DNA of 64,000 nucleotides from an uncultured Saprospiraceae bacterium (GTDB lineage: Bacteria; Bacteroidota; Bacteroidia; Chitinophagales; Saprospiraceae), in assembly GCA_964484205.1 (NCBI GenBank), contig CAZAEZ010000009.1, forward strand, positions 24,035 through 88,034, written 5' to 3'. Shown piece by piece: positions 8,320-26,963 of this stretch. The position numbers and the translations under genes are program-made. The notes beneath the pieces are model-generated. The model was not told the DNA's origin. It ran no database searches and saw only the letters and a program-made list of their open reading frames with translations. Each line of letters begins with the position of its first letter. Positions within the stretch are counted from its first letter, which is position 1.

Positions 8320-10275
8320 ATGCTGCGATCTCTATTGCTAGTACCCGCCGTAGGCCTGCTTTTGTCGGGCAGTCTTTTTTCCCAACAACGCACTTGCGCC
8401 GCTCAGGAAATGCTACTCCAGCAACTGAAAGAAAACCCGGAACTCCAGCAAACACGCGATGCCATCGAACAACACACCAAACAATTCATCAGCAAGGGCG
8501 GCGCGACCGACCGCACGGTGGTTACCATCCCGGTGGTGGTACACGTTGTTTGGAACACCACGGCTGAAAACATCAGCGACGCGCGCATCCTGGCCCAACT
8601 CCAGGTGCTCAACGACGACTTCCGCCGCCTGAATGCCGATGCCGGCAACACGCCTTCAGGCTTTCAGGGTGTGGCTGCCGACTGCGAGGTTGAATTTTGC
8701 CTGGCCCAACGCGACCCCAGCGGCAATGCGACGACGGGCATCGTGCGCCGGCAAACCACGGTCACCTCTTTCGGTACCAGCGGCAACCCGGTTAAATTTA
8801 ACAGCTCCGGCGGCAGTAATGCCTGGCCCCGCGACCAGTACCTCAACCTCTGGGTTTGCGACCTGAGCAGCGGCCTGCTGGGCTACGCTCAATTCCCGGG
8901 CGGCGGCGCCAGCACCGACGGTGTGGTATGCGATTACCTCTACTTCGGCACAACGTCTACCGGCGCCCAACCGCCCTTCGATAAAGGCCGCACGGCCACC
9001 CACGAAGTCGGGCACTGGCTCAACTGCTACCACATCTGGGGCGACGACGGCTCCTCCTGCTCCGGCACCGACCAGGTATCCGACACCCCCAACCAGGCCG
9101 ATGAAAATTACGGCTGCCCGAGCTTCCCAACGGTCAGCTGCAGCAACGGGCCCAACGGCGACATGTTTATGAACTACATGGACTACACCGACGATGCCTG
9201 TATGAATATGTTCACCGCCGGGCAAAAAGGCCGCATGCAGGCCCTTTTCGGCGCCGGTGGCTTCCGGGCGCCACTGCTTTCCTCCCTGGGCTGTGTACCG
9301 CCCGGCGGCGGTGGCGGTTGCGGCACGCCGGGCAGCCTGGCAGCAAGCAGCATCACTCAAACAAGCGCCACAGTTAGCTGGGGCTCAGTTAGCGGAGCAT
9401 CCAACTACAACCTCCAGTACAAAGTGTCCACCTCGTCTACCTGGACCACCGTTTCGGGCATTGGCGGCACCTCGTACAACCTCACGGGCCTGAGCGCCGG
9501 CACCACCTACAACTACCAGGTGCAGGCGAATTGCAGCGGCACTACCGGCTCCTACTCCGGTGCGGCTTCGTTTACCACTAGTAGCGGCGGCGGCGGTTGC
9601 AGTGACACGTACGAGTCAAACAACAGCCGTAATCAGGCAAAAACGATCCCGGTCAACCAGGCCATTCAGGCGCTGATCGGTACGTCCAGCGACAACGACT
9701 ACTTCAAGTTCAACGTCACATCCAGCGCCCGGAACATCCGGATCGATCTGACCAACCTGCCTTACGATTATGACCTGCGCTTCTACCGCAACAGCAGCCA
9801 GGTGGCTATTTCACAAAATGCAGGCACTACGCCCGAACTGATCATTTACAACAACGCCAGCACGTCATACACGTACTACCCGCGGGTGTACGGCTACAAC
9901 GGCGCATTCAGCAGTTCGCAGTGCTATACCCTGCAGGTCAGTGTCAGCAGCAGTGCATGGCGGACCGACGGCAGCACCGACGGCCAGGTAACCACCCTGG
10001 AAGTACCGGTTGACCTGGAAGTGGACGGATTTGCCATGTGGCCCAACCCGGCGATGGAACAACTCACCGTGGATGTGCCGCTGGAGCGCGACAGCGACGT
10101 ACAGTTGACCATTTTCGACGCCGCAGGCAAAGCTGCCGTGCAGCAAAACCGGAGCATGGTGAAAGGTGAAAACCGCTTCGAACTCAGCTTGCAAACGCTG
10201 CACAACGGGGTGTACTTCGTACAAGTACGCAACGGCGACCAGACGCATACGCGGAAACTGGTGGTTCAGAAATAG
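8320..10275 (+). CDS. secreted M43 (pappalysin/cytophagalysin-like) zinc metalloprotease with FN3-like and PPC-like domains and a T9SS C-terminal sorting domain
   Basis: Signal peptide. '[16 protein letters not shown]' fits HExxHxxxxxH. '[20 protein letters not shown]...YNYQVQANC' is FN3-like. The C-terminus '[13 protein letters not shown]...[22 protein letters not shown]' is typical of Por_Secre_tail. Confidence 0.85.
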
Positions 10276-11555: not shown

Positions 11556-13736
11556 ATGAAAAACGTACTTACACTGCTGTTTTTTGCCCTGCTCACTTTT
11601 TCCACCCAAGCCCAAAACAACTACGCCGAAGCCATCCAGCAAGGCGATGCCGCCCTGCGCCGCGGGCAGTACAAAACCGCGATCAACAAATATTTTGCGG
11701 CGGAGGCGTTTGACCCGTCGAAGAAGGCGGTGGTGCAGGGGAAGGTGAACAAGGCGTTTGATGCGATTGAGGGGTTGCGGCGGCAGGCGGAAAATGCGCT
11801 GAGTCAGGTAAAAGCCGAACAGGCAAAAACCAAAGAAGCGCTTCTGCAGGCTGAGCAGGCAAAAGGGGAAGCCCTGGCTGCGCAGGCCAAAACACAGGCC
11901 GCCCTGGCCAAAGCGGACAAACTGATTAATGCTTTTTACTTTTATGAAGACAAGTTTGCGCTGGCGTATAAGAACAACCGCTTTTATTTTATTGATAAAA
12001 ACGGCGATGAAATACCCAAACTCCGCCGTTGGGAAAAAGCCGAGCAGTTTGATGACAGGGGTTTCGCCAAAGTAAGCGACCGCGATAAAATTTACCTGCT
12101 GGATACCTTGGGAAACACATACCGTATTGCCTACGATGTTCAGGACCTGGAGCCGGAAGTTACCGCATTGGACCTGTCGGGCAAACGCCTCCCGGAAATC
12201 CCAGCCGTTGTTTTTCAGCATACGCAGTTGAAAATTCTATTCTTGTCGAACAACAAGTTGGAACGCTTGCCGCCACAGATCGGGAACTTGCAGGCCCTGA
12301 TCATCCTGGACTTGAATGAGAACAAACTCACGCAACTTCCGGATGAAATTGGGAGGCTAAAAAATCTAACTGCCTTAAGGGTATCAAAAAATACCCTGAA
12401 AACGCTTCCGGCCCAAATCGGGCAATTGAATCAACTGTCGGCGCTCAATTTATGGACAAACAATCTGGAAGACTTGCCACCTGAAATCGGCAACCTGTAC
12501 AACCTGGAACACTTGGATCTGGTTAACAACCAACTTGCAAGTATTCCACCGGCAATTGGAAATCTAAAGAAACTGACTGTTTTAAGTCTGTCTTTTAATG
12601 CCCTGACCACGCTGCCACTGGCGATCGGCACCTTGAGAAACCTGAAAACCCTCGACTTAACGAGCAACAAGCTGGAATATCTGCCGGATGAAATAGGCAA
12701 TCTGACTAATTTAACCCGCTTGAGAATAAGCAACAATAAATTCAACGTGCTGCCGCCGGCAATTTGCAAGTTGAAAAAATTAGTCGTACTCGACATCGGA
12801 AACAATGCACTGACTTCCCTCCCGCCGGATATCAAGGATTTGGAAAATCTGGAGGATTTGAATATTTGGAGTAACGACATCAGCAGCCTTCCGGGAGAAA
12901 TTTGTAGTTTAAACCAATTAGTCAAGTTGCAATTAGGGGCAAATCGTCTCAATGACCTGCCGGTAGAAATCGGGAATTTGCAAAATTTGGCAGTGCTCGA
13001 CCTGTGGGGAAACCCCATCGGCTATCTACCCGATCAACTTGGCGAGTTGAACCAATTAACCCAGCTTCGCCTGGCTGTAACCTCGTTTCTGGACTTTCCC
13101 AAGGCTATATCGATTATCGGAAAACTCACCAATTTGCACAATCTGAGACTCAATATTAGGGATCTGACAGCACTCCCACCCGAAATCGTTACCCTAAAAA
13201 ATCTCACCAGCCTGGACCTGGGTAACAACAACAAAATGGATATCACACAAGTATTGCTGGCCATTAAAGACCTCGATCAAATAACTGAATTAAATCTGAT
13301 CCTCAACGACTTAACCAGCCTGCCGCCTGAAATCGGCGACTTGGAGGGCTTGGAAGAATTGTATCTCGGGCACAATAGACTCACCCACCTACCCGCTGAA
13401 CTCAGTAAGCTTAAGAAACTGAACCGCCTGGATTTGAATTACAATAAAAATCTTGACTTACCAGCTGCATTAACTATCCTCCGGACGCTACCGCAATTTA
13501 CACGTTTGGATCTGGTCAATATTGACATAACAGAGCTTCCTGCCGAACTTGGGACCTTGGAGAATCTGACCAATCTTGATCTTAGTTTCATTGAAAACCT
13601 AAACCCCGGCCAGGCTCTGCAAGTTGTAAAACAACTTCCTAACCTGAAATATCTCAACCTTCAGGGCATCCCAATCCCCGAAGCCGACCGGGATGTCTTC
13701 AAACGAAGCTTGCCCCGCTGCGAAATCAACTTCTGA
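11556..13736 (+). CDS. secreted leucine-rich-repeat protein, paralog 1 (signal peptide, TPR-like hairpin, coiled-coil, WG-like repeats, about 21 LRRs)
   Basis: ATG 11556 gives 'MKNVLTLLFFALLTFSTQAQ'. A conserved module 'NNYAEAIQQGDAALRRGQYKTAINKYFAAEAFDPSKK' follows. 'FYFIDKNGDEIPKLRRWEKAEQFDDRGFAKV' is WG-repeat-like. Then come ~23-aa LxxLxxLxLxxNxLxxLPxxIGxL repeats to the C-terminus. Confidence 0.85.
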   Translation: MKNVLTLLFFALLTFSTQAQNNYAEAIQQGDAALRRGQYKTAINKYFAAEAFDPSKKAVVQGKVNKAFDAIEGLRRQAENALSQVKAEQAKTKEALLQAEQAKGEALAAQAKTQAALAKADKLINAFYFYEDKFALAYKNNRFYFIDKNGDEIPKLRRWEKAEQFDDRGFAKVSDRDKIYLLDTLGNTYRIAYDVQDLEPEVTALDLSGKRLPEIPAVVFQHTQLKILFLSNNKLERLPPQIGNLQALIILDLNENKLTQLPDEIGRLKNLTALRVSKNTLKTLPAQIGQLNQLSALNLWTNNLEDLPPEIGNLYNLEHLDLVNNQLASIPPAIGNLKKLTVLSLSFNALTTLPLAIGTLRNLKTLDLTSNKLEYLPDEIGNLTNLTRLRISNNKFNVLPPAICKLKKLVVLDIGNNALTSLPPDIKDLENLEDLNIWSNDISSLPGEICSLNQLVKLQLGANRLNDLPVEIGNLQNLAVLDLWGNPIGYLPDQLGELNQLTQLRLAVTSFLDFPKAISIIGKLTNLHNLRLNIRDLTALPPEIVTLKNLTSLDLGNNNKMDITQVLLAIKDLDQITELNLILNDLTSLPPEIGDLEGLEELYLGHNRLTHLPAELSKLKKLNRLDLNYNKNLDLPAALTILRTLPQFTRLDLVNIDITELPAELGTLENLTNLDLSFIENLNPGQALQVVKQLPNLKYLNLQGIPIPEADRDVFKRSLPRCEINF

Positions 13737-13830
13737 AAAATCTATACACTTTAACCCGAGGCGGTTCACCAACGTTACCTTTACGTGCATTGCAATAGCT
13801 GCCAGCCCAATACAAATCACAACTTTCGCC

Positions 13831-14970
13831 ATGCCACAAACCACCACCGCACCCCTAGCCCAGGTAAAATGGGACGATGTCCTCGACACCCTCGACGCCC
13901 AACGCTGCGTGCTCTTCCTCGGTAGCGGCGCCCTGCCCGCTCCCGGCGGCGGCCCGGTTGAAGCCGCCCTCAGCCAATGGCTCGACGCCAACAACCCCGA
14001 GCACCCGCACATCCAGGTGTACAACCCCGACGGTTTTTTGCTGCTGCGCAAACAACGCTACCGCCGCCACGTGGTGGCCGGCATGAAAGATTTTTACAGC
14101 CAGCCCTTTCCCGAGGCCGAAACGCTGTACAGCCGCATCGCCCGCCTGCCGTTTTCGATGGTGGTTACGCTTACGCCCGACAATATCCTGGCCCGCACCT
14201 TCGACGTGCTGGGGCTCGATTACCAGCCCGATTTTTACTTCCGCAACCGCAAGGCCGGCGACCAGTTTGAAAAACCCAGCCGTCAAAAACCCCTGCTCTA
14301 CAACCTCCTGGGCAACATTGAAGAGCCGGAAAGCCTCGTGCTCACCCACGGCGATTTTTTCGACTACCTCGAATCCGTCTTCCGCGGCAACAGCATGAAC
14401 CCCGAACTGAAAGACGAACTCGAAAGCATGGAACGCTACATTTTTCTCGGCCTGCCCTATGAAAAATGGTATTTCCAATTGCTGCTGCGCGTGCTCTCGT
14501 TGCACTCCGATAAACTCAAAGAGATCGAACGGCTGGCCCTGAAGGAATTTGAAGACCCCCGCCTGCACAAAATTTACACCGAGGAATTCAAGATCGAATT
14601 TTTCCCGGCCAGCGCCGAGGAGTTTATCGCCGAACTCTACCGGCGCTGCGACGCCGACGGAATGCTCAAAGCCCTGCCCGCCACCGACCCCGCCGAAGCC
14701 GGCATCCCCGATGCCACTGCCGAACAGCTCGAAAACATGCTGGCCGAAGCCAAAACCGACGAGGCCATGCTCCACCTGAAAGTGTTTCTCGACCGGCGCA
14801 AACCCCGCAGTTATACGCTGGCCAATGCACTCGTGGTACTGCGCAACCGCCGCAACCTGCTCCGCCAGCGCGAACTGCGCGGCACCATCGACTCGCGCGA
14901 CGCTTCCGTGGAAAACAACCAGATCGTTGAGCAACTTTTAGCGTTGATCGGACAAGCCAAAACCCTTTGA
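13831..14970 (+). CDS. divergent SIR2-like (SIR2_2-type) domain protein with C-terminal EAD1-like helical domain
   Basis: ATG 13831 is preferred; the 13693 start overlaps the previous gene. The order 'VLFLGSGA', 'VVTLTPDNILARTF', 'LLYNLLGNIEEPESLVLTHGDFFDY', 'IFLGLPYEKWYF' matches the SIR2_2 block order. The C-terminal 'ALVVLRNRRNLLRQRELRGTIDSRDASVENNQIVEQLLALI' matches the effector-associated-domain pattern as I remember it. Confidence 0.65.
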   Translation: MPQTTTAPLAQVKWDDVLDTLDAQRCVLFLGSGALPAPGGGPVEAALSQWLDANNPEHPHIQVYNPDGFLLLRKQRYRRHVVAGMKDFYSQPFPEAETLYSRIARLPFSMVVTLTPDNILARTFDVLGLDYQPDFYFRNRKAGDQFEKPSRQKPLLYNLLGNIEEPESLVLTHGDFFDYLESVFRGNSMNPELKDELESMERYIFLGLPYEKWYFQLLLRVLSLHSDKLKEIERLALKEFEDPRLHKIYTEEFKIEFFPASAEEFIAELYRRCDADGMLKALPATDPAEAGIPDATAEQLENMLAEAKTDEAMLHLKVFLDRRKPRSYTLANALVVLRNRRNLLRQRELRGTIDSRDASVENNQIVEQLLALIGQAKTL

Positions 14971-16721
14971 ACGCCATGGAAAACGATACGAAAAAACAAT
15001 CCACTCCGTACCGCTACCCCGGCGTTACGCCGTTCACCACCGAGCAAAGCAGCATCTTCTTCGGTCGCCAGCGCGATACCGACGAGCTCTACCGCCTTAT
15101 CCGCCGCGAGCCGCTGGTGGTGCTCTACGGTAAAAGCGGTCTGGGAAAAAGCTCGCTCATCAATGCCGGCATCATCCCCCGCTGCCGGGAAGAGGGCTCC
15201 CACAGTCCGATCATTGTGCGCTTCGGAGCCTGGACGGAGGGCGAATCCACCACGCCCCTCGAAGCCACCAAAATTGCGCTCACCGGCGGCAAAAAAGCCG
15301 AAACCTTTCTCGACCGCCTGCTACCCGATGACAACGCACTCTGGGCCTGCGCCAAAAGCCGCCAACTGGCCGCCACGGATGTCCAGGCGCGTCCGCTCCT
15401 GCTGTTCGACCAGTTTGAAGAATTGTTCAGTTACCCGGAAGCGGAAATCGCCGCCTTTCTCAGCGACCTGGTCGAGTTGCTCAACACCGGCATTCCCCTG
15501 CGTTTTCGCCGCATGGCCGAATCCGACGACACACTGACCGATGCCGACGAGGAGCGCCTCGAAGCGCCGCTGGATGCCCGCATTGTGTTTGCCATCCGCT
15601 CCGACCGCATGCACCTGCTCGACCGGCTAAAAGACCACCTGCCCATGGTGCTGCGCCATACCTTTGAACTCAAGGCGCTGTCGCAAAAAGACGCTACCGA
15701 TGCCATCGTGGAACCGGCACGCGCTGCGGGTGATTTCGCTACGGAAACGTTTGAATTCAGTCCGGAAGCCCTCACGGCCCTGCTGACCTACCTCGCCGAC
15801 GAGCAGGACAAGGAAGGCCGCGTGGAAGGTATTCTGCTCCAGATGCTTTGCGAACATTACGAACGCAAGCTGGTCGGCGGCAAGGGCCTGCGCCGGCTCG
15901 AACAGCAGCACACCGGCAACCCCGACCAGGTGGTGCAGCAGTATTACGAAGAAAAAATACAGGTTTTGCCCGCCGACCAGCAGTTGCCCGCCCGCCGCCT
16001 GATCGAAGACGGCCTGGTGTCGGAAGGCGAAGCCATGCGCCTCAGCCTGCACGAGAGTTTTATCATCCAGGAGTTTGGCGCCGAAAAAACCTTGCTCGAG
16101 CAGTTGGTCGACAGCCGCCTGCTGCGCTCCGAACCCTTCCTGCGCGGGGGCTATACCTACGAGCTCTCCCACGACCGCCTGGTGCCGCCTGTGCTCAAAG
16201 CCCGCAGCCAGCGCCGCGAAGAGGAAGCCCGCCTCGAAGCTGCGCGCCTCGAAACGGAGCGCCAGCGCAAGCTTGAAGAAGCGCAGCGGCAGGCCGAGCA
16301 GGAGCGGCAGTTGCGTCAGCAAGCCCAGGCCGGCGAGCGCCGCGCGCGGCAACGCACCCGGTTGGCGGCCGGGGTGTCGGCAGTGGCGCTGGTGCTGGCG
16401 GCGGTGGCTTTTTGGAGTTATTCGGAGGCCCAGCGGAATGCGAAGTTGGCTACAGAAAAAAGTGAAGAGGCGGAGGCCAGCCGAAAGCGGACAGAGGAGG
16501 CTTTGAAGCAGTCTAACCGGTTTTTAGCCAAGTCGGATAAACTCAATTTTGAAAATCTTGAAGGCCGGGTCCGTGTTATTTTGAATGGACGACTTTGCCC
16601 CCCCGAAAAATGGCTCATCGAAATGCAGGAAATTACCGGACGGCATCCCGATAGCCTTCAATTAAAAATACGATTGCAGGAACTTCAGACACTTCGTAAT
16701 CAAAACCCGGATTGCAGATGA
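14967..16721 (+). CDS. nSTAND-type P-loop NTPase with C-terminal coiled-coil, single TM helix and 101-aa tail (no repeat sensor)
   Basis: 'PYRYPGVTPFTTEQSSIFFGRQRDTDEL'. Walker A 'LYGKSGLGKSSLINAGIIP' (nt 15129-15155). Walker B-like 'LLLFDQFEELF'. An R/E/Q-rich coiled-coil. TM helix 'LAAGVSAVALVLAAVAFW' (~16362-16418). TTG 14967 overlaps the upstream TGA (14968-14970); an alternative ATG is at 14976. Confidence 0.8.
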   Translation: MNAMENDTKKQSTPYRYPGVTPFTTEQSSIFFGRQRDTDELYRLIRREPLVVLYGKSGLGKSSLINAGIIPRCREEGSHSPIIVRFGAWTEGESTTPLEATKIALTGGKKAETFLDRLLPDDNALWACAKSRQLAATDVQARPLLLFDQFEELFSYPEAEIAAFLSDLVELLNTGIPLRFRRMAESDDTLTDADEERLEAPLDARIVFAIRSDRMHLLDRLKDHLPMVLRHTFELKALSQKDATDAIVEPARAAGDFATETFEFSPEALTALLTYLADEQDKEGRVEGILLQMLCEHYERKLVGGKGLRRLEQQHTGNPDQVVQQYYEEKIQVLPADQQLPARRLIEDGLVSEGEAMRLSLHESFIIQEFGAEKTLLEQLVDSRLLRSEPFLRGGYTYELSHDRLVPPVLKARSQRREEEARLEAARLETERQRKLEEAQRQAEQERQLRQQAQAGERRARQRTRLAAGVSAVALVLAAVAFWSYSEAQRNAKLATEKSEEAEASRKRTEEALKQSNRFLAKSDKLNFENLEGRVRVILNGRLCPPEKWLIEMQEITGRHPDSLQLKIRLQELQTLRNQNPDCR

Positions 16722-16804
16722 AACTGTTTTCTGTTCTATTGATCGTTATTGGAATTTCCGGGTTGGCCCAGGCCCAAAACAACTACACCCTGGTTATCCT
16801 GTAG
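16718..16804 (+). pseudogene. orphan 28-codon signal-peptide remnant of the LRR paralog family
   Basis: ATG 16718 overlaps the NTPase stop (ATGA). It translates as 'MKLFSVLLIVIGISGLAQAQNNYT' then 'LVIL' and a stop. The 24-nt stretch cccaggcccaaaacaactacaccc is identical to the LRR3 5' region, and homology ends abruptly after it. Confidence 0.55.
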
Positions 16805-16898
16805 AGCAGCCCTATCCTTCGGTCGAAGGGGAAAAGCCGGCAACGTCTCCCAAATTTCAGAATCGGATTCTACCAAAACACCCCTAACTTTACAGGAC

Positions 16899-17204
16899 AT
16901 GAAAAATCCACCAACAGCCCAAGACTTCAGCAACTATCTTTTCTGGGATGTAGAAAAGAGCAAAATCGACTTTGACAAAAGCAAAGCCTACGTCATAGAG
17001 CGGGTGCTATCGCATGGCATGTTGACGGATTGGGATATGCTTAAAATAGTCTATGGCAAAGAAATTATTCGGGAGGTGGTTTTAAATTTACGTCATCTAG
17101 ACAAATATGCCCTGCATTTCTGCGCGGCCTATTTTGACGTACCACTCGAAAATTTCAGATGCTACAACTACGCGCAATCGAACCCCGTACACTGGGACTT
17201 CTAA
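16899..17204 (+). CDS. small conserved partner (putative antitoxin) of the AbiEii-type nucleotidyltransferase
   Basis: 101 aa from ATG 16899 ('MKNPPTAQDFSNYLFWDVEKSKIDFDKSKAYVIERVLSHGMLTDWDMLK'). It overlaps the downstream toxin gene by 46 nt. The role is assigned from position and recollection of similar Bacteroidota pairs. Confidence 0.55.
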   Translation: MKNPPTAQDFSNYLFWDVEKSKIDFDKSKAYVIERVLSHGMLTDWDMLKIVYGKEIIREVVLNLRHLDKYALHFCAAYFDVPLENFRCYNYAQSNPVHWDF

Positions 17205-17773
17205 AGGCATTGATGCAAGAGTCCGTCTTAGCTGATAATTTTTTAGTTGGCGGTACGGCATTGGCACTTCAATTGGGACACCGACTTTCTGTTGATCTGG
17301 ATTTATTTACCCATACGCCTTTTAGTGCTGAGGACCTGCTTGAAAAATTGCGCGAAAAATTTACGGTCCAACCACTTACAGTAACCAACACGATTTTTAT
17401 TGCCGTCATCGAAGGCATCAAGGTGGACTGCGTTCGGTTTAAGTATCCATTTGCTTTTCCAATTTTGGATACCGACGGTATCCGTTTTGCTGACATCCGG
17501 GATATTGCGGCAATGAAATTAGACGCTGTCGCTAAACGCGGAACCAAGAAAGATTTTATTGACATGTATTACTTGTTTGAGCGCTTTTCGCCTGCTCAAA
17601 TCCTGGAATGGTATGAGCAGATGTTTCAGCATTCGACAAGCTTGCATGTTATTCGAAGCCTGACCTACTTTGAGGATGCAGAGCAAACCGAAATGCCCGT
17701 CGTATTCGATAAAAAAACAACATGGGCCGCAGTTAAAAGTCGGATGGTCAACGTTGTCAGAAATAATTTTTAG
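17159..17773 (+). CDS. nucleotidyltransferase AbiEii/AbiGii toxin-family protein
   Basis: 'LVGGTALALQLGHRLSVDLDLF' (NTase G-x / DxD region) and 'DIAAMKLDAVAKRGTKKDFIDMYYL' are typical of the AbiEii (DUF1814) family. Confidence 0.75.
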   Translation: MLQLRAIEPRTLGLLKALMQESVLADNFLVGGTALALQLGHRLSVDLDLFTHTPFSAEDLLEKLREKFTVQPLTVTNTIFIAVIEGIKVDCVRFKYPFAFPILDTDGIRFADIRDIAAMKLDAVAKRGTKKDFIDMYYLFERFSPAQILEWYEQMFQHSTSLHVIRSLTYFEDAEQTEMPVVFDKKTTWAAVKSRMVNVVRNNF

Positions 17774-17777
17774 CAAC

Positions 17778-19301
17778 ATGAAGAAACTAACTGCCATGCT
17801 TTTTCTCGCCGTCCTGGCTTTCGCTGCCCAGGCCCAAAACAACTACTCCCAAGCCATCCAGCAAGGCGATGCCGCCCTGCGCCGTGGGGAATACAAAACG
17901 GCGATAAAAAAATACTTCGCGGCAGAGGCGTTCGATCCGTCGAAAAAGGATGTGGTGCAGCGGAAGGTGGAGGTTGCGTTTGACAAGATTGAGGCGCTGC
18001 GGGTGGAAGCGGAGCGGGCAAAAACAGAGGCTAAAGTTGCCTTGCAAAAGGCAGATAAACTCATAAATGCATTTTACTTCTATGCCGACCGGTTCGCATT
18101 GGCATTTAAGGCTGGTCAGTTTTACTTCATTGACAAAAATGGCGATGAAATTGAAATGCTTGGTCGTTGGGGAAAGGCAGAACAATTTGACTATGACGGG
18201 TTTGCAAAAGTTAGTGACAACAATACAACCTATTTGCTCGATACACTGGGCAATAAATTTCCGGCAGCATTTGATGTAAAAGATTTAAAGTCTGGAATAC
18301 TGGCATTGGATTTATCACACAAGGAATTAACAGAATTCCCCAAAGAAGTTTTTCAGCATAAACAGCTAAAGATTTTGCGATTGGGATTATGCAAATTGAC
18401 GCAACTGCCGGCGGAAATAGGGGTAATGAAAAGTTTGATTCGTTTAGATTTGGGAGGTAATAAATTGACGAGTTTGCCCCCGGCAATCGGACAATTGGAA
18501 AATTTAATCACGTTGCAGTTGAACTATAACGCCTTGACTTCTTTGCCCAACGAAATAGGGGGTTTAAAAAACTTAAGCACCCTGGATCTAAGAAATAATC
18601 AACTGCAACGTCTCCCCGAAGGATTTAAAGCGTTGGGGAAATTGCGTGCACTGGATTTGAGTATCAACCAGCTATCCAGTTTTCCAGTCGAAATATTAGG
18701 GTTAAAAAATTTACTCTTATTGGATTTGAGCGTCACCAAACTGCGTGATCTGCCCACCCAAATCAACAACTTGGAAAACTTATCATCGTTGGATTTAGGT
18801 TCTAATGCATTAACCAGCTTACCGGCTGAAATTGGAGGTCTGAAAAATTTACGCACTCTGGACCTATTCGAAAACCAATTGGGCAGCCTGCCGGCTCAAA
18901 TTGGGTTATTATCAAACCTGACATACTTAGGGTTAAATAGGAACCAGCTGATGTCTCTGCCTGCCGATATCGGGAAACTAAAAAATTTAACGGAACTGGA
19001 TTTGTTTGGAAATCCATTGAAAACATTGCCGCCACAAATTGGCGCATTAAAAAACCTGCGGAATCTGGATTTGGGGGGGTGTAAGCTTAGCCGTATTCCA
19101 CCGGAGATCGGAGGGGCAACAAACCTGGTCAGTCTAAATTTAATTTTTAATGAATTAACCAGCCTTCCTGAACAAATAGGGAACCTTAAAAATCTAAAGG
19201 AATTGTTTCTGAATGAAAACTATTTCCCGGATACAGAACTGGCAAAAATCAAGCGCCGCTTACCGGCCTGTGATATTAGTAGCTACCCGTTTACAGAGTA
19301 G
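17778..19301 (+). CDS. secreted leucine-rich-repeat protein, paralog 2
   Basis: ATG 17778 lies 4 nt after the AbiEii stop and gives 'MKKLTAMLFLAVLAFAAQAQ'. It has the same N-terminal module, WG-like repeats and about 14 LRRs. It ends 'AKIKRRLPACDISSYPFTE'. Confidence 0.85.
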   Translation: MKKLTAMLFLAVLAFAAQAQNNYSQAIQQGDAALRRGEYKTAIKKYFAAEAFDPSKKDVVQRKVEVAFDKIEALRVEAERAKTEAKVALQKADKLINAFYFYADRFALAFKAGQFYFIDKNGDEIEMLGRWGKAEQFDYDGFAKVSDNNTTYLLDTLGNKFPAAFDVKDLKSGILALDLSHKELTEFPKEVFQHKQLKILRLGLCKLTQLPAEIGVMKSLIRLDLGGNKLTSLPPAIGQLENLITLQLNYNALTSLPNEIGGLKNLSTLDLRNNQLQRLPEGFKALGKLRALDLSINQLSSFPVEILGLKNLLLLDLSVTKLRDLPTQINNLENLSSLDLGSNALTSLPAEIGGLKNLRTLDLFENQLGSLPAQIGLLSNLTYLGLNRNQLMSLPADIGKLKNLTELDLFGNPLKTLPPQIGALKNLRNLDLGGCKLSRIPPEIGGATNLVSLNLIFNELTSLPEQIGNLKNLKELFLNENYFPDTELAKIKRRLPACDISSYPFTE

Positions 19302-19368: not shown

Positions 19369-20769
19369 ATGAAATTAATATCCTGTCTCCTGTTTTTATT
19401 TTTCCTGCCGCTCGCTGCCCAGGCCCAAAACAACTACACCCAGGCCATCCAGCAAGGCGATGCCGCCCTGCGCCGGGGTGAATACAAAACGGCGATAAAA
19501 AAATACTTCGCGGCGGAGGCCTTTGATCCCTCGAAAAAGGATGTGGTGCAGCGGAAAGTGGAAGTGGCGTTTGACAAGATTGAGGCGCTGCGGGTGGAAG
19601 CGGAGCGGGCATTTAAGCAGGTGAAGGCAGAGCAGGAGAAAACGCAGGCGGCTTTGGACAGGGCCGACAAACTGGTGGAGGCCTTTTATTTCTATGCCGG
19701 GCGCTTTGCGCTGGCTTACAACGATTACCACTACTATTTCATAGACAAAAATGGAAACCCGATAGAAAAACTGGGCTATTGGGATCAGGCCGGACAATTT
19801 ACCAATGAAGGCTTTGCCCGTGTTTCACCCTATGATGTGGACACCATTGTAACACGGGATACAACTACGTATGAAGAGCGCGTACAAATCCTACGGAATT
19901 CATCCTTAGACTATTTTTTAATAGACACGACAGGTAAAAAATACCTGGTTTCCACCGATGAGCCGGAGAAAGAGCCCGGCATTGCTGCGCTGGGTTTTAG
20001 TTTTAATCAGTTGAAGGAGTTTCCGGAAAAAATATTCAATTATCCCGCGCTTGAAATATTGGAGATCAATGGCAATGAAATCGAAAAAATTCCACCACAA
20101 ATTGGAACACTCAAACAGCTCCGGTTTTTATACCTGAGTCAAAACAACATAAACTCCCTGCCACCTGAAATTGGCGAATTAATCGATCTGGAACGCCTGT
20201 ATTTAAAAGGTAATGATTTGACAACCCTTCCTATAGAACTGGGCCGGTTAACCAAGTTAAAAATATTGGATTTAACGAATAACCCTGTACACGAAAGTGA
20301 AGTTGAGAAAATCCGGAAATTACTGCCTGACTGCCTGATTCGGGGCGGGTATTCGTTCGGAGCAATTTCCAGTCTGTATTGGAGTTCGAAGCGCTTTCGG
20401 GAAGCCTATGATTATATGAAAAAAGATCTCGAGGAAAAGGAGTATGCGTCTGATAACTGGTACGATTGGGAAACCTGGAGCTGGCGGGCAATGCATGCCG
20501 CGAAATATGAAGAAGCAATCCTGTATGCTCAAAAAGCCCTCGAGGTTAACTTTTTGGCAGAAGGTGTGCTCTCCTATCTTGCCCTCGGCTATCTGCTAAA
20601 CAACCAATGGCCTGAAGCCGAAAAAATTTATTTAAAATGGAAAGGGCGCTTTTGTCAGGGTACTTTTAAATACTGCGACAGGATTTTTTTGGAAGACATC
20701 GCCAAACTCGAAGCCGCCAACATCACCCACCCCGATTTTGAAAAAGTGCGGCAGCTATTCAAAAAATAG
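19369..20769 (+). CDS. secreted leucine-rich-repeat protein, paralog 3 (few LRRs plus W/Y-rich TPR-like C-terminal domain)
   Basis: 'MKLISCLLFLFFLPLAAQAQ' from ATG 19369 (alternative ATG 19339). The N-terminal module is identical in protein sequence to paralog 2 over ~54 aa. About 4 LRRs follow, then 'YEEAILYAQKALEVNFLAEGVLSYLALGYLLNNQWPEAEKIYLKW'. Confidence 0.8.
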   Translation: MKLISCLLFLFFLPLAAQAQNNYTQAIQQGDAALRRGEYKTAIKKYFAAEAFDPSKKDVVQRKVEVAFDKIEALRVEAERAFKQVKAEQEKTQAALDRADKLVEAFYFYAGRFALAYNDYHYYFIDKNGNPIEKLGYWDQAGQFTNEGFARVSPYDVDTIVTRDTTTYEERVQILRNSSLDYFLIDTTGKKYLVSTDEPEKEPGIAALGFSFNQLKEFPEKIFNYPALEILEINGNEIEKIPPQIGTLKQLRFLYLSQNNINSLPPEIGELIDLERLYLKGNDLTTLPIELGRLTKLKILDLTNNPVHESEVEKIRKLLPDCLIRGGYSFGAISSLYWSSKRFREAYDYMKKDLEEKEYASDNWYDWETWSWRAMHAAKYEEAILYAQKALEVNFLAEGVLSYLALGYLLNNQWPEAEKIYLKWKGRFCQGTFKYCDRIFLEDIAKLEAANITHPDFEKVRQLFKK

Positions 20770-25628: not shown

Positions 25629-26963
25629 TTACGCCGCCACCATTTCCGCCCGCGGTTTCCAGTTCGTCATTTGCTCGGTGATAAAATCGAGCGCCTGGCT
25701 CCAGGCTTCTTGCAGCCGGTCGGTGTACAGCGCACCCATTTCCTCCCGGATCGTTTCGAGCAGCACTTCTTTGACGATGGGATAATACTCGGGCCGGACC
25801 CCGTAGCGCTCGTGACTTTTCCCCAGCGCTTTCAGGCCCATAACCAGAAACTCGGGACGGCTGAGCGAGTACACGATGCCGCCCAGCATGTGCGTGAGCA
25901 GGCGCCCCTGTGCAGCCATGTCGTTTTTGAACAGTGCCCGCACGCCCGGCGCCCGGGTAAATACTTTTTCGTAAAAGCGTTCGGCAAAGCGCTCCTCGTT
26001 CTTCAGGATCAGGTCGAGTGACGATTGCAGTTCGAGGTTCATGTCGGTTTTCAAAAAACCTTTTACTTCGTACAGTTCGGATTCAAAATCCTTGCCCGCC
26101 AATTGTTTGCGGAGCACTTTGCCGATATCGACCGTGTCTTCCGGCAAACTTTTCAGGATTGATTTGGAAATAAGAATCGTAGCGTCGGCCTCCTTGGTGC
26201 AGCCCTGGATGCGGCTGGCCATGTTGATGGGGTCGCCCAACACAGTAAACTGCCGGTGCTTGGGATGGCCGAGGTGGCCGATGAAGGCTTTGCCGAAATT
26301 GATGCCGATGCCGACCCGGAATTTCGTGTCAAAATCTTTGAGTTCGAACGCGTTGAGCCGCTCAATGGCGTATTGCATACCCAGGGCGGCGCGTACGGCA
26401 TCGTGGCAATTTTTTTCGCGCGACCCGCCGGAAGTGCCGAAAATGCCGATGATCTCGTCGCCGACGTACTGGTAAATGATGCCGTTGTTCATCAGGATGG
26501 GGTCGCCCAGCACGGTGTAAAACCGGTTGATCATGTGGGCCAGATCAAAGGGCAGGTTTTGCGACGTGAGGCGAGTAAAGTCGCGCATGTCGCAAAACAG
26601 GGTGGCGATGCTGCGCACCTCCGCCTCACCCTCGGGGATGGTTTCCAGTTGCAGTTTGTTGACTTCGGCGCTGGCCCAAACCAGGCGCTGGATCGCCACG
26701 TCGCCTTTGGGATAGCACTGGCAGGCCAGGCGGATGGAGGGGTCCCATTTGCGCAGGTGCGCGGTGTCACGCTCCAGTCCCGTGCGGGGCGAGAGATTCT
26801 GGTGCCCTTCGACAATCCGTATCCGGCAGGTGGTGCAGCGGCCGTTGCCGCCGCATTCGTGGAGGTGCGGGATTTTGTGTTGCAGGGAAATGTCGAGCAG
26901 GGTGGAATCCGGGTCATCGGATTCGACGAGTTGGTTGATACCGGTGTAGAGAATTTTTGCCAT
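25629..26963 (-). CDS. 2Fe-2S ferredoxin / class III adenylate-guanylate cyclase / globin fusion protein
   Basis: N-terminal 'CGGNGRCTTCRIRI ... LACQC' (plant-type Fer2 cysteines). Cyclase motifs 'ATLFCDMRDFTRL', 'GDEIIGIFG', 'RVGIGINFGKAFIGHLG', 'TVLGDPINMASRIQ'. C-terminal globin-like 'FAERFYEKVFTRAPGVRALF ... LGKSHERYGV'. Confidence 0.8.
   Translation of the reverse strand: MAKILYTGINQLVESDDPDSTLLDISLQHKIPHLHECGGNGRCTTCRIRIVEGHQNLSPRTGLERDTAHLRKWDPSIRLACQCYPKGDVAIQRLVWASAEVNKLQLETIPEGEAEVRSIATLFCDMRDFTRLTSQNLPFDLAHMINRFYTVLGDPILMNNGIIYQYVGDEIIGIFGTSGGSREKNCHDAVRAALGMQYAIERLNAFELKDFDTKFRVGIGINFGKAFIGHLGHPKHRQFTVLGDPINMASRIQGCTKEADATILISKSILKSLPEDTVDIGKVLRKQLAGKDFESELYEVKGFLKTDMNLELQSSLDLILKNEERFAERFYEKVFTRAPGVRALFKNDMAAQGRLLTHMLGGIVYSLSRPEFLVMGLKALGKSHERYGVRPEYYPIVKEVLLETIREEMGALYTDRLQEAWSQALDFITEQMTNWKPRAEMVAA

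Follow-up and report, generated by a model that had tools for sequence, protein, structure and literature searches.

To our knowledge, every characterised defence sirtuin (ThsA, DSR1/2, SIR2-HerA, SIR2-APAZ, Avs5 and KomC), together with human FAM118A/B, breaks down nicotinamide adenine dinucleotide (NAD+) as an NADase that depends on an asparagine and a histidine. In ThsA, N112A and H152A each abolish NADase activity (10.1101/2024.09.18.613514), mutation of the equivalent Asn and His kills the activity of FAM118A/B (PMC12700824), and one study describes the catalytic residues as conserved across the immune sirtuin subfamily. A second group of described systems combines nSTAND1 NTPases with effector-associated domains (EADs), and the layout published for them places one copy of the EAD at the N-terminal end of the NTPase (Kaur, Iyer, Burroughs, Aravind 2021, PMC8195603). 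Here we describe a locus in a 64,000-nucleotide (nt) stretch of contig CAZAEZ010000009.1, from an uncultured Saprospiraceae bacterium, called the window below and numbered from its first letter. It encodes a 379-residue protein with a SIR2-derived domain and a C-terminal EAD11 domain, followed directly by an nSTAND1 NTPase. From its sequence, we infer that the SIR2-derived domain is no longer a sirtuin-type NADase, and the gene product is best explained as the cytoplasmic partner subunit in a STAND receptor system that spans the membrane. The gene and its domains are as follows.

13831..14970, plus strand: SIR2-like-EAD11 protein, 379 residues (open reading frame with a start that fits the homologues; Pfam SIR2_2 and EAD11; AlphaFold2 model).
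13864..14670, plus strand: SIR2-derived Rossmann-type domain, approximately residues 12-280 (Foldseek; hhalign against B. cereus ThsA; profile alignment to SeThsA 7uxt). Key positions are G31-S-G33-A-L35 (13921-13935), T115 (14173-14175), D117 (14179-14181) and L160 (14308-14310), as well as N158, H173 and G207-L-P209.
14716..14955, plus strand: EAD11 helical adaptor domain, residues 296-375 (Pfam PF19964).

The mechanical open reading frame on the plus strand runs from 13693 to 14970, and the ATG at 13831 gives the 379-residue product, in agreement with the N-termini of 64 aligned homologues. The longer frame from 13693 was rejected as the gene, as homologues begin near 13831 and the additional stretch would run into the end of the leucine-rich repeat (LRR) gene upstream, which stops at 13736. 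A hydropathy scan of the 379-residue protein showed no hydrophobic segment and no transmembrane window, and the protein is therefore predicted to be cytoplasmic. On the opposite strand, a 359-residue antisense frame (13855-14934) lies wholly within the gene; we treated it as a by-product of the G+C-rich coding sequence.

A first-pass annotation, made from the letters of the window, had proposed a SIR2_2-like domain with the block order of the defence sirtuins, quoting VLFLGSGA, FSMVVTLTPDNILARTF, KPLLYNLLGNIEEPESLVLTHGDFFDY and YIFLGLPYEKWYF; all four strings were found, in that order. Alignment to profile models supported the domain call. Pfam SIR2_2 (PF13289) matched residues 117-227 at 29.4 bits (E = 9.7e-7), above its cut-off of 24.5, while no NCBIfam model matched the protein and PADLOC returned only a marginal ThsA match at 15.5 bits. 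The N-terminal 99 residues, searched alone against PDB sequences, gave chance matches only. When a profile of the family was compared by hhalign with four canonical SIR2_2 proteins, taken from plasmids and including an annotated B. cereus thsA, the match had a probability of 94.8% and E = 1.2e-8 over 252 columns.

The AlphaFold2 model, built from 65 sequences, had a mean predicted local distance difference test (pLDDT) score of 88.9 and a predicted template modelling (pTM) score of 0.86. When Foldseek was used to search the PDB with this model, ThsA (8btp, 7uxt, 6lhx, 8wc0), KomC/HAM-SIR2, DSR2 and Avs5 were returned with a probability of 1.00 and E-values from 3e-9 to ~1e-6. The top match was B. 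cereus ThsA (8btp, E = 3e-9), followed by KomC, SeThsA, DSR2 and Avs5, and the matches included the mutant entries DSR2 H171A and KomBC H146N. The query-normalised TM-score was only ~0.47, because the query also contains EAD11. In the model, the strands at residues 26-30, 110-113, 155-158 and 202-206 each finish at one of the four classical nucleotide-contacting loops. The 379-residue protein is thus predicted to have the defence-type SIR2 fold, a zinc-less Rossmann fold like that of ThsA and DSR2.

To map the active site, we used three alignments: phmmer against SeThsA, the family profile against the PDB (SeThsA 7uxt), and the hhalign profile-profile alignment against the canonical four. All three gave the same mapping of the catalytic positions, shown here opposite B. 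cereus ThsA.

T-L-T115-P-D117, opposite T-T-N112-Y-D114: the catalytic Asn is replaced by Thr.
Y-N158-L-L160-G, opposite Y-K-M-H152-G: the catalytic His is replaced by Leu.
G31-S-G-A-L35, opposite G-A-G-L-S: the loop Ser is replaced by Leu.
G207-L-P209, opposite G-F-S: the motif Ser is replaced by Pro.

This is the arrangement that the first-pass annotation had drawn by eye, with TLTPD opposite TTNYD (T115 at N112, D117 at D114) and YNLLG opposite YKMHG (L160 at H152), and its claim that the canonical Asn and His are absent holds well beyond this one protein. We counted residues in 264 family proteins and looked separately at the 150 most divergent representatives. Where the catalytic His would be expected, the 264 proteins carry Leu (152), Phe (65), Met (27), Val (6) and others, and not one has His. 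The catalytic Asn position is Thr in 139, Ser in 43 and Asn in 41. The Ser of the GAGxS loop is replaced by Tyr in 110 and Phe in 71, and that of the GxS motif by Pro in 173, Lys in 21 and Asp in 17; among the 150 divergent representatives, the first loop mostly reads G-P-E/D. As the Ser residues of both GAGxS and GxS are replaced, canonical NAD binding is disfavoured, and the loss of both NAD-contacting residues argues against such binding as much as against catalysis.

Could the protein instead be an ordinary SIR2 NADase whose missing Asn and His are an artefact of alignment? The weak Pfam SIR2_2 match (29.4 bits) and the pairwise identity to ThsA of ~15% leave some room for error. However, the three independent alignments concur, which makes an artefact unlikely; the predicted strands 110-113 and 155-158 stop exactly at the two motifs, and within two residues of either motif there is no conserved His or Asn apart from N158. 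We regard this explanation as highly improbable. Nor did we find a relocated His. The His of 'LTHGDF' (H173), which the first-pass annotation had named as the residue that might restore an Asn/His pair, does not rescue the active site: it aligns with the Lys of ThsA 'LIKDDY', and the position is His in 208 and Tyr in 42 of the 264 proteins. As substitutes for the catalytic Asn, N118 occupies a variable position and was rejected, and N158 is conserved yet aligns with ThsA K150, so that we kept it only as a candidate residue for the rebuilt enzyme considered below.

The last ~75 residues had been read as an EAD1-type helical domain. An effector-associated domain is indeed present at the C-terminus, but it is EAD11 and not EAD1: Pfam EAD11 (PF19964) matched at E = 4.4e-16 and 59.1 bits (cut-off 26), covering model positions 2-78 of 80, and no Pfam match to EAD1 was found in the protein at E <= 1. 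AlphaFold2 predicted this domain as four helices (297-305, 309-321, 328-350 and 355-377). The first EAD11 annotations were on LRR-AP-GTPase-COR proteins of Haliscomenobacter (PMC8195603), where the domain lies at the C-terminus, for example in Halhy_6666 and Halhy_6692 (PMC8195603, Figure 6-source data 1). In the HHpred table of those authors EAD11 recovers only itself (PMC8195603, Supplementary file 1), so there is no documented link from EAD11 to EAD1 or to Death-like domains.

Immediately downstream of the SIR2-like gene is the NTPase.

14976..16721, plus strand: nSTAND1 NTPase, 581 residues, starting 6 nt past the SIR2-like stop codon (Pfam nSTAND1, E = 4.6e-39).
15129-15155, plus strand: its Walker A motif, residues 52-60.
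16362-16421, plus strand: its single transmembrane helix, residues 463-482 (hydropathy scan).

The NTPase is 100% identical to a 581-residue member of the collected set (P0275). The helix comes after a coiled coil in the cytoplasmic part, is preceded by RRARQRTR and is followed by a coiled coil and a short tail (~100 residues). From this single helix and the basic stretch before it, we predict that the NTPase part is cytoplasmic and that the tail faces outward. We scanned one genome per species for related loci, which gave 80 loci, several genomes having two or three. In 71 of the 80, an nSTAND1 domain starts no more than 700 nt past the SIR2-like stop codon, the remaining loci being contig ends or fragments.

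The first-pass annotation had seen no matching EAD on the neighbouring NTPase, and every search agreed with it. Pfam found none. The Pfam nSTAND1 model begins at residue 17 of the TTG-start translation, equivalent to residue 14 counted from the ATG at 14976, and this leaves no room for an N-terminal EAD. A family EAD11 profile, run against all six frames of the window, matched the SIR2-like gene only, with no second EAD11 copy in the 64 kb; hhalign of EAD11 against the nSTAND1 partners gave a probability of 0.2%; and an EAD11 or SIR2_2 annotation was found on none of the best 120 nSTAND1 orthologues. A cryptic EAD11 in the nSTAND1 or LRR proteins was rejected from the same six-frame and hhalign searches. 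The published nSTAND1 source table likewise does not contain 'EAD11', which is listed in that work only for AP-GTPase proteins (PMC8195603, file 1). It had also been concluded from the missing EAD that the partner is unclear. Here the question can be narrowed: the constant operon partner is the nSTAND1 protein itself, even though that NTPase carries no EAD.

A natural fusion points the same way. One protein (P0126, locus L094) joins nSTAND1 to two tandem SIR2-like-EAD11 units that lie C-terminal to the NTPase, and its existence favours physical coupling of nSTAND1 with SIR2-like-EAD11. The gene for this fusion adjoins caspase, CHAT, AAA and vWA genes.

The pair in the window is flanked by genes for secreted LRR proteins, with one unrelated-looking pair between them.

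11556..13736, plus strand: secreted LRR protein 1, with a signal peptide, a TPR-like/coiled-coil N-module, a WG repeat and LRRs (Pfam LRR_14, LRR_8).
16749..17773, plus strand: DUF6922 and AbiEii toxin-antitoxin-like pair, between nSTAND1 and LRR protein 2 (Pfam).
17778..19301, plus strand: secreted LRR protein 2, a paralogue of LRR protein 1 (Pfam; 209-nt repeat family).
19369..20769, plus strand: secreted LRR protein 3, paralogous but with fewer LRRs, and TPR-like at its C-terminus (Pfam; 209-nt repeat family).

We infer that the three LRR proteins are outward-facing sensor subunits. Three LRR proteins also flank the SIR2-like/nSTAND1 pair in the closest relatives (L006 and L007). Among nSTAND1 relatives, the region after the helix varies and can be a formylglycine-generating-enzyme-type (FGS) lectin domain, a PD40-like propeller (L008) or LRRs (P0290, P0303, P0331). 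The FGS lectin has an adjoining diversity-generating retroelement (DGR) in L001 and none within 7 kb in L004. Elsewhere the sensor module has a gene of its own and carries a signal peptide: the separate FGS protein of L009 matches the fused C-terminus of L001 at E = 1e-73, and the separate PD40 protein of L005 matches the fused PD40 of L008 at E = 1.5e-24. A TPR-like and coiled-coil N-module is common to the separate LRR, FGS and PD40 proteins (29-45% identity over 51-100 residues), and the C-terminal part of P0290, fused past its transmembrane helix, repeats the WG, LRR and 'LPxC' arrangement of the LRR proteins of the window. By these comparisons, the nSTAND1 sensor is either fused past the helix or separately secreted, and is of the FGS (with DGR), PD40 or LRR type. 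A DGR was also considered for the window and rejected, as a search of it turned up no reverse transcriptase, Avd, HRDC or FGS.

EAD11 is not confined to the SIR2-like protein in related loci. In eight of the 80 loci, further EAD11 proteins, with Pfam-confirmed architectures, lie within 7 kb of the SIR2-like gene, including the following.

L033: EAD11 with CHAT.
L040: EAD11 with Peptidase_C14.
L040: a 447-residue protein with a C-terminal EAD11.
L087: EAD11 with TIR_2.
L066, L077, L082 and L076: small proteins that combine EAD11 with coiled-coil or transmembrane segments.

In addition, P0138 (L095) is a SIR2-like-EAD11 protein fused to an AAA_21/AAA_15 ATPase and followed by a 247-residue EAD11 protein, P0132 contains tandem SIR2-like-EAD11 units, and Haliscomenobacter has both the SIR2-like-EAD11/nSTAND1 pair and Roco-EAD11 proteins. 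A search for further EAD11 architectures, started from aligned N-terminal EAD11 domains, gave one match. Because EAD11 is fused to CHAT, Peptidase_C14, TIR_2 and others in these loci, it is probably a shared adaptor, with the SIR2-derived protein as its one constant carrier.

The first-pass annotation had suggested that the protein may bind NAD or a nucleotide as an adaptor. On this alternative the degenerate SIR2 pocket is a ligand sensor or regulator, which would gate nSTAND1 or EAD11 assembly by binding, but not cleaving, NAD+ or a signal derived from ADP-ribose. TIR is fused ahead of the SIR2-like domain in P0235 and replaces EAD11 in P0261, alongside the EAD11-TIR protein of L087, and TIR domains produce ADP-ribose-derived signals in Thoeris. 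In P0126 the SIR2-like units are C-terminal to the NTPase, the usual sensor position, and the retained D117 (the Asp of the TxNxD motif) and conserved cleft would suit a bound ligand. However, the TIR fusions are rare (two of the 150 representatives), dedicated outward-facing sensors are already present, and in the wider family the GAGxS loop is mostly G-P-E/D with an aromatic residue for Ser, which disfavours the canonical dinucleotide pose. We consider a sensor improbable.

Our leading reading, which we hold tentatively, is that the protein is a non-catalytic, sirtuin-derived adaptor or output subunit of the receptor and that EAD11 mediates homotypic contacts. A surface cue on the LRR proteins would lead to NTP-dependent oligomerisation of nSTAND1, and the oligomers would cluster the SIR2-derived subunit, which would serve as a scaffold without hydrolysing NAD+ by the sirtuin mechanism. 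Its EAD11 domains could then assemble homotypically with each other and, where such proteins are encoded, with EAD11-tagged caspase, CHAT, TIR or Roco-type proteins. An assembly or adaptor role is more likely than that of an NAD-destroying enzyme because the residues for NAD breakdown are lost and the gene lies beside that of a membrane-spanning STAND ATPase.

Several observations weigh against this reading, and most of them are also what an effector enzyme with a rebuilt active site would predict, in which D117, N158, D67, S168 and D175 would cleave NAD+, another nucleotide or a glycoside once clustered by nSTAND1. The family conserves G31, D67, P107, P116-D117, P154, Y157-N158, G161, S168, T172, D175, G207, W213, Y214 and R220, and within this set the polar D117, N158, S168, D175, W213 and R220 are strongly conserved near the predicted C-terminal edge of the beta-sheet. 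That edge is the ligand-binding side in Rossmann folds, so the pattern also fits a remodelled active site, and the window protein retains G-S-G in its first loop. The published 'EAD principle' holds that fusion to an EAD usually marks a domain as the effector, and in 72 of the 80 loci there is no other candidate effector within 7 kb; a purely scaffolding role would therefore leave most systems without a visible output. A rebuilt enzyme accounts for the high conservation of polar residues after beta-2, after beta-3 and in a family-specific hairpin, and for a SIR2-like domain that fills the EAD-linked 'effector' slot as the sole candidate output gene in most loci. Position 158, two residues ahead of the canonical His position, is even His in 10 of the 264 proteins. 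Against this, the family has no invariant general base: only hydrophobic residues occur at the canonical His position, Tyr is the alternative at H173, and the Asn position is Thr, Ser or Asn. D117 (252 of 264) falls short of strict invariance, N158 is found in 237 of 264, both canonical NAD-contacting Ser residues are lost, no precedent was found in the papers searched, and catalytic residues are described as conserved across immune sirtuins in the study mentioned at the outset. On this evidence we judge a rebuilt enzyme unlikely, though well ahead of a ligand sensor. A broader version of the adaptor reading is comparably doubtful: that the whole pseudo-sirtuin clade acts as a signalling adaptor of transmembrane STAND receptors, in which outward LRR, lectin or propeller sensors would signal through the membrane to the NTPase, the NTPase would nucleate SIR2-derived scaffolds, and EAD11 would recruit caspase, CHAT or TIR executioners.

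The family is large. When 1.84 billion representatives were searched exhaustively with a profile, 3479 proteins matched at E <= 1e-3, and 639 of them reached E <= 1e-30, the latter corresponding to at least 639 clusters at 50% identity. The best 150 members are ~350-400 residues long and span both domains, except for a few fusions. The 80 loci come almost entirely from Saprospiraceae, Lewinellaceae, Haliscomenobacter and Phaeodactylibacter, and the named sources are nearly all filamentous Saprospiraceae or Lewinellaceae; the closest, at 94-95% identity, are from Lewinellaceae metagenome-assembled genomes. In the papers that could be searched, neither a SIR2 clade without the His nor the SIR2-like-EAD11/nSTAND1 pair was found to be described. 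With at least 639 clusters and not a single His seen, the clade would represent a second, non-canonical use of the sirtuin fold in conflict systems, and labels such as 'SIR2 family protein' would lead automated annotation to predict, wrongly, NAD+ depletion for such systems.

Several features of the surrounding DNA deserve mention. The DUF6922 protein (E = 1.3e-17) overlaps an AbiEii nucleotidyltransferase toxin (E = 4.4e-17). Because the corresponding position in the closest relative (L006) is a gap of only 95 nt, this pair looks like a recent toxin-antitoxin-type insertion that lies outside the system. Direct repeats of 209 nt at 11590-11798, 17812-18020 and 19403-19611, with 79-93% nucleotide identity, encode the TPR-like N-module of the LRR paralogues; the downstream two, at 93% identity, may be products of a recent duplication or of gene conversion. 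The outward tail of nSTAND1 (16600-16721) contains two conserved cysteines, in 'RLCPPEKW' and the terminal 'NPDCR', and two of the three LRR proteins have one Cys near the C-terminus ('LPRCEINF' at 13700-13736 and 'LPACDISS' at 19260-19301), LRR protein 3 ending in '...VRQLFKK'. The same Cys pattern of tail and LRR protein is seen in L006 and P0290, and a disulfide between sensor and receptor is possible. In the DGR-bearing relatives, which are Haliscomenobacter hydrossis and a Saprospiraceae metagenome-assembled genome, the DGR genes lie directly 3' of the FGS sensor (L001, 14369-16197, HRDC, RVT_1 and bAvd; L009, 12321-13988, HRDC and RVT_1), and the outward FGS sensor is probably hypermutated. 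Further away in the window, 8320-10275 encodes a secreted Peptidase_M43 protein with fn3 and a type IX secretion C-terminal sorting domain, consistent with a Bacteroidota host. On the minus strand, 25629-26963 encodes a 443-residue protein with 2Fe-2S ferredoxin, adenylate/guanylate cyclase catalytic and globin domains, by its domain content an unusual redox- or gas-sensing cyclase architecture.

How does this locus compare with known systems? The ThsA-type sirtuins (SIR2_2 or 'SIRim': ThsA, DSR2, KomC and the SIR2 domain of Avs5) have the same fold and are the best structural matches. The window protein has in common with them the Asp of TTNYD, the Gly of HG, the T..D(Y/F) motif and the Gly of GxS, as well as an immune-type NTPase context. 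Unlike them, it has neither the catalytic Asn and His nor either NAD-contacting Ser, and it is a separate polypeptide with an EAD11 tail rather than a domain fused N-terminally to an NTPase. In contrast to Thoeris (ThsA/ThsB), neither the protein nor its neighbours have a SLOG or Macro sensor, and there is no adjacent ThsB TIR gene. In domain pairing it resembles Avs5, where SIR2 is likewise combined with a STAND NTPase. However, the catalytic SIR2 domain of Avs5 is N-terminal on its STAND protein, while here the genes are separate, the NTPase is nSTAND1, the His is absent, and the sole fusion seen has the SIR2-like units at the C-terminal side.

The nSTAND1-FGS and EAD-coupled conflict systems (PMC8195603) share with this locus an nSTAND1 NTPase, a variable sensor and an EAD-linked partner, and both occur in filamentous bacteria. 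In contrast to the published scheme, the nSTAND1 described here has no EAD, which is found on the constant SIR2-derived partner, and the NTPase is predicted to span the membrane with its sensor outside. The DGR-targeted nSTAND1-CLec proteins (PMC10907252) resemble our relatives L001 and L009, which likewise combine an FGS sensor with a DGR reverse transcriptase, whereas the version in the window differs from both published groups in having separately secreted LRR proteins and no DGR. Judging from the context, a STAND NTPase may read a sensor outside the cytoplasm by way of its membrane helix, with the sensor swapped among LRR, PD40 and DGR-diversified lectin types. If the scaffold reading is true, bacterial EAD-mediated assembly could be tested in a defined two- to three-gene system.

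A looser comparison can be made with animal Toll-like receptor signalling, where catalytically inactive TIR scaffolds turn an NAD-processing fold into an assembly module under an LRR receptor. The likeness, offered as an analogy only, is an NAD-processing fold used as an assembly module below a membrane receptor with outward LRRs. In the bacterial case, which is predicted from sequence, the fold has no relationship to TIR and a STAND NTPase serves as the receptor. If the pseudo-sirtuin adaptor reading is true, these loci would represent a bacterial counterpart of the Toll-like type of receptor-adaptor-effector cascade, built on a different NAD-enzyme fold.

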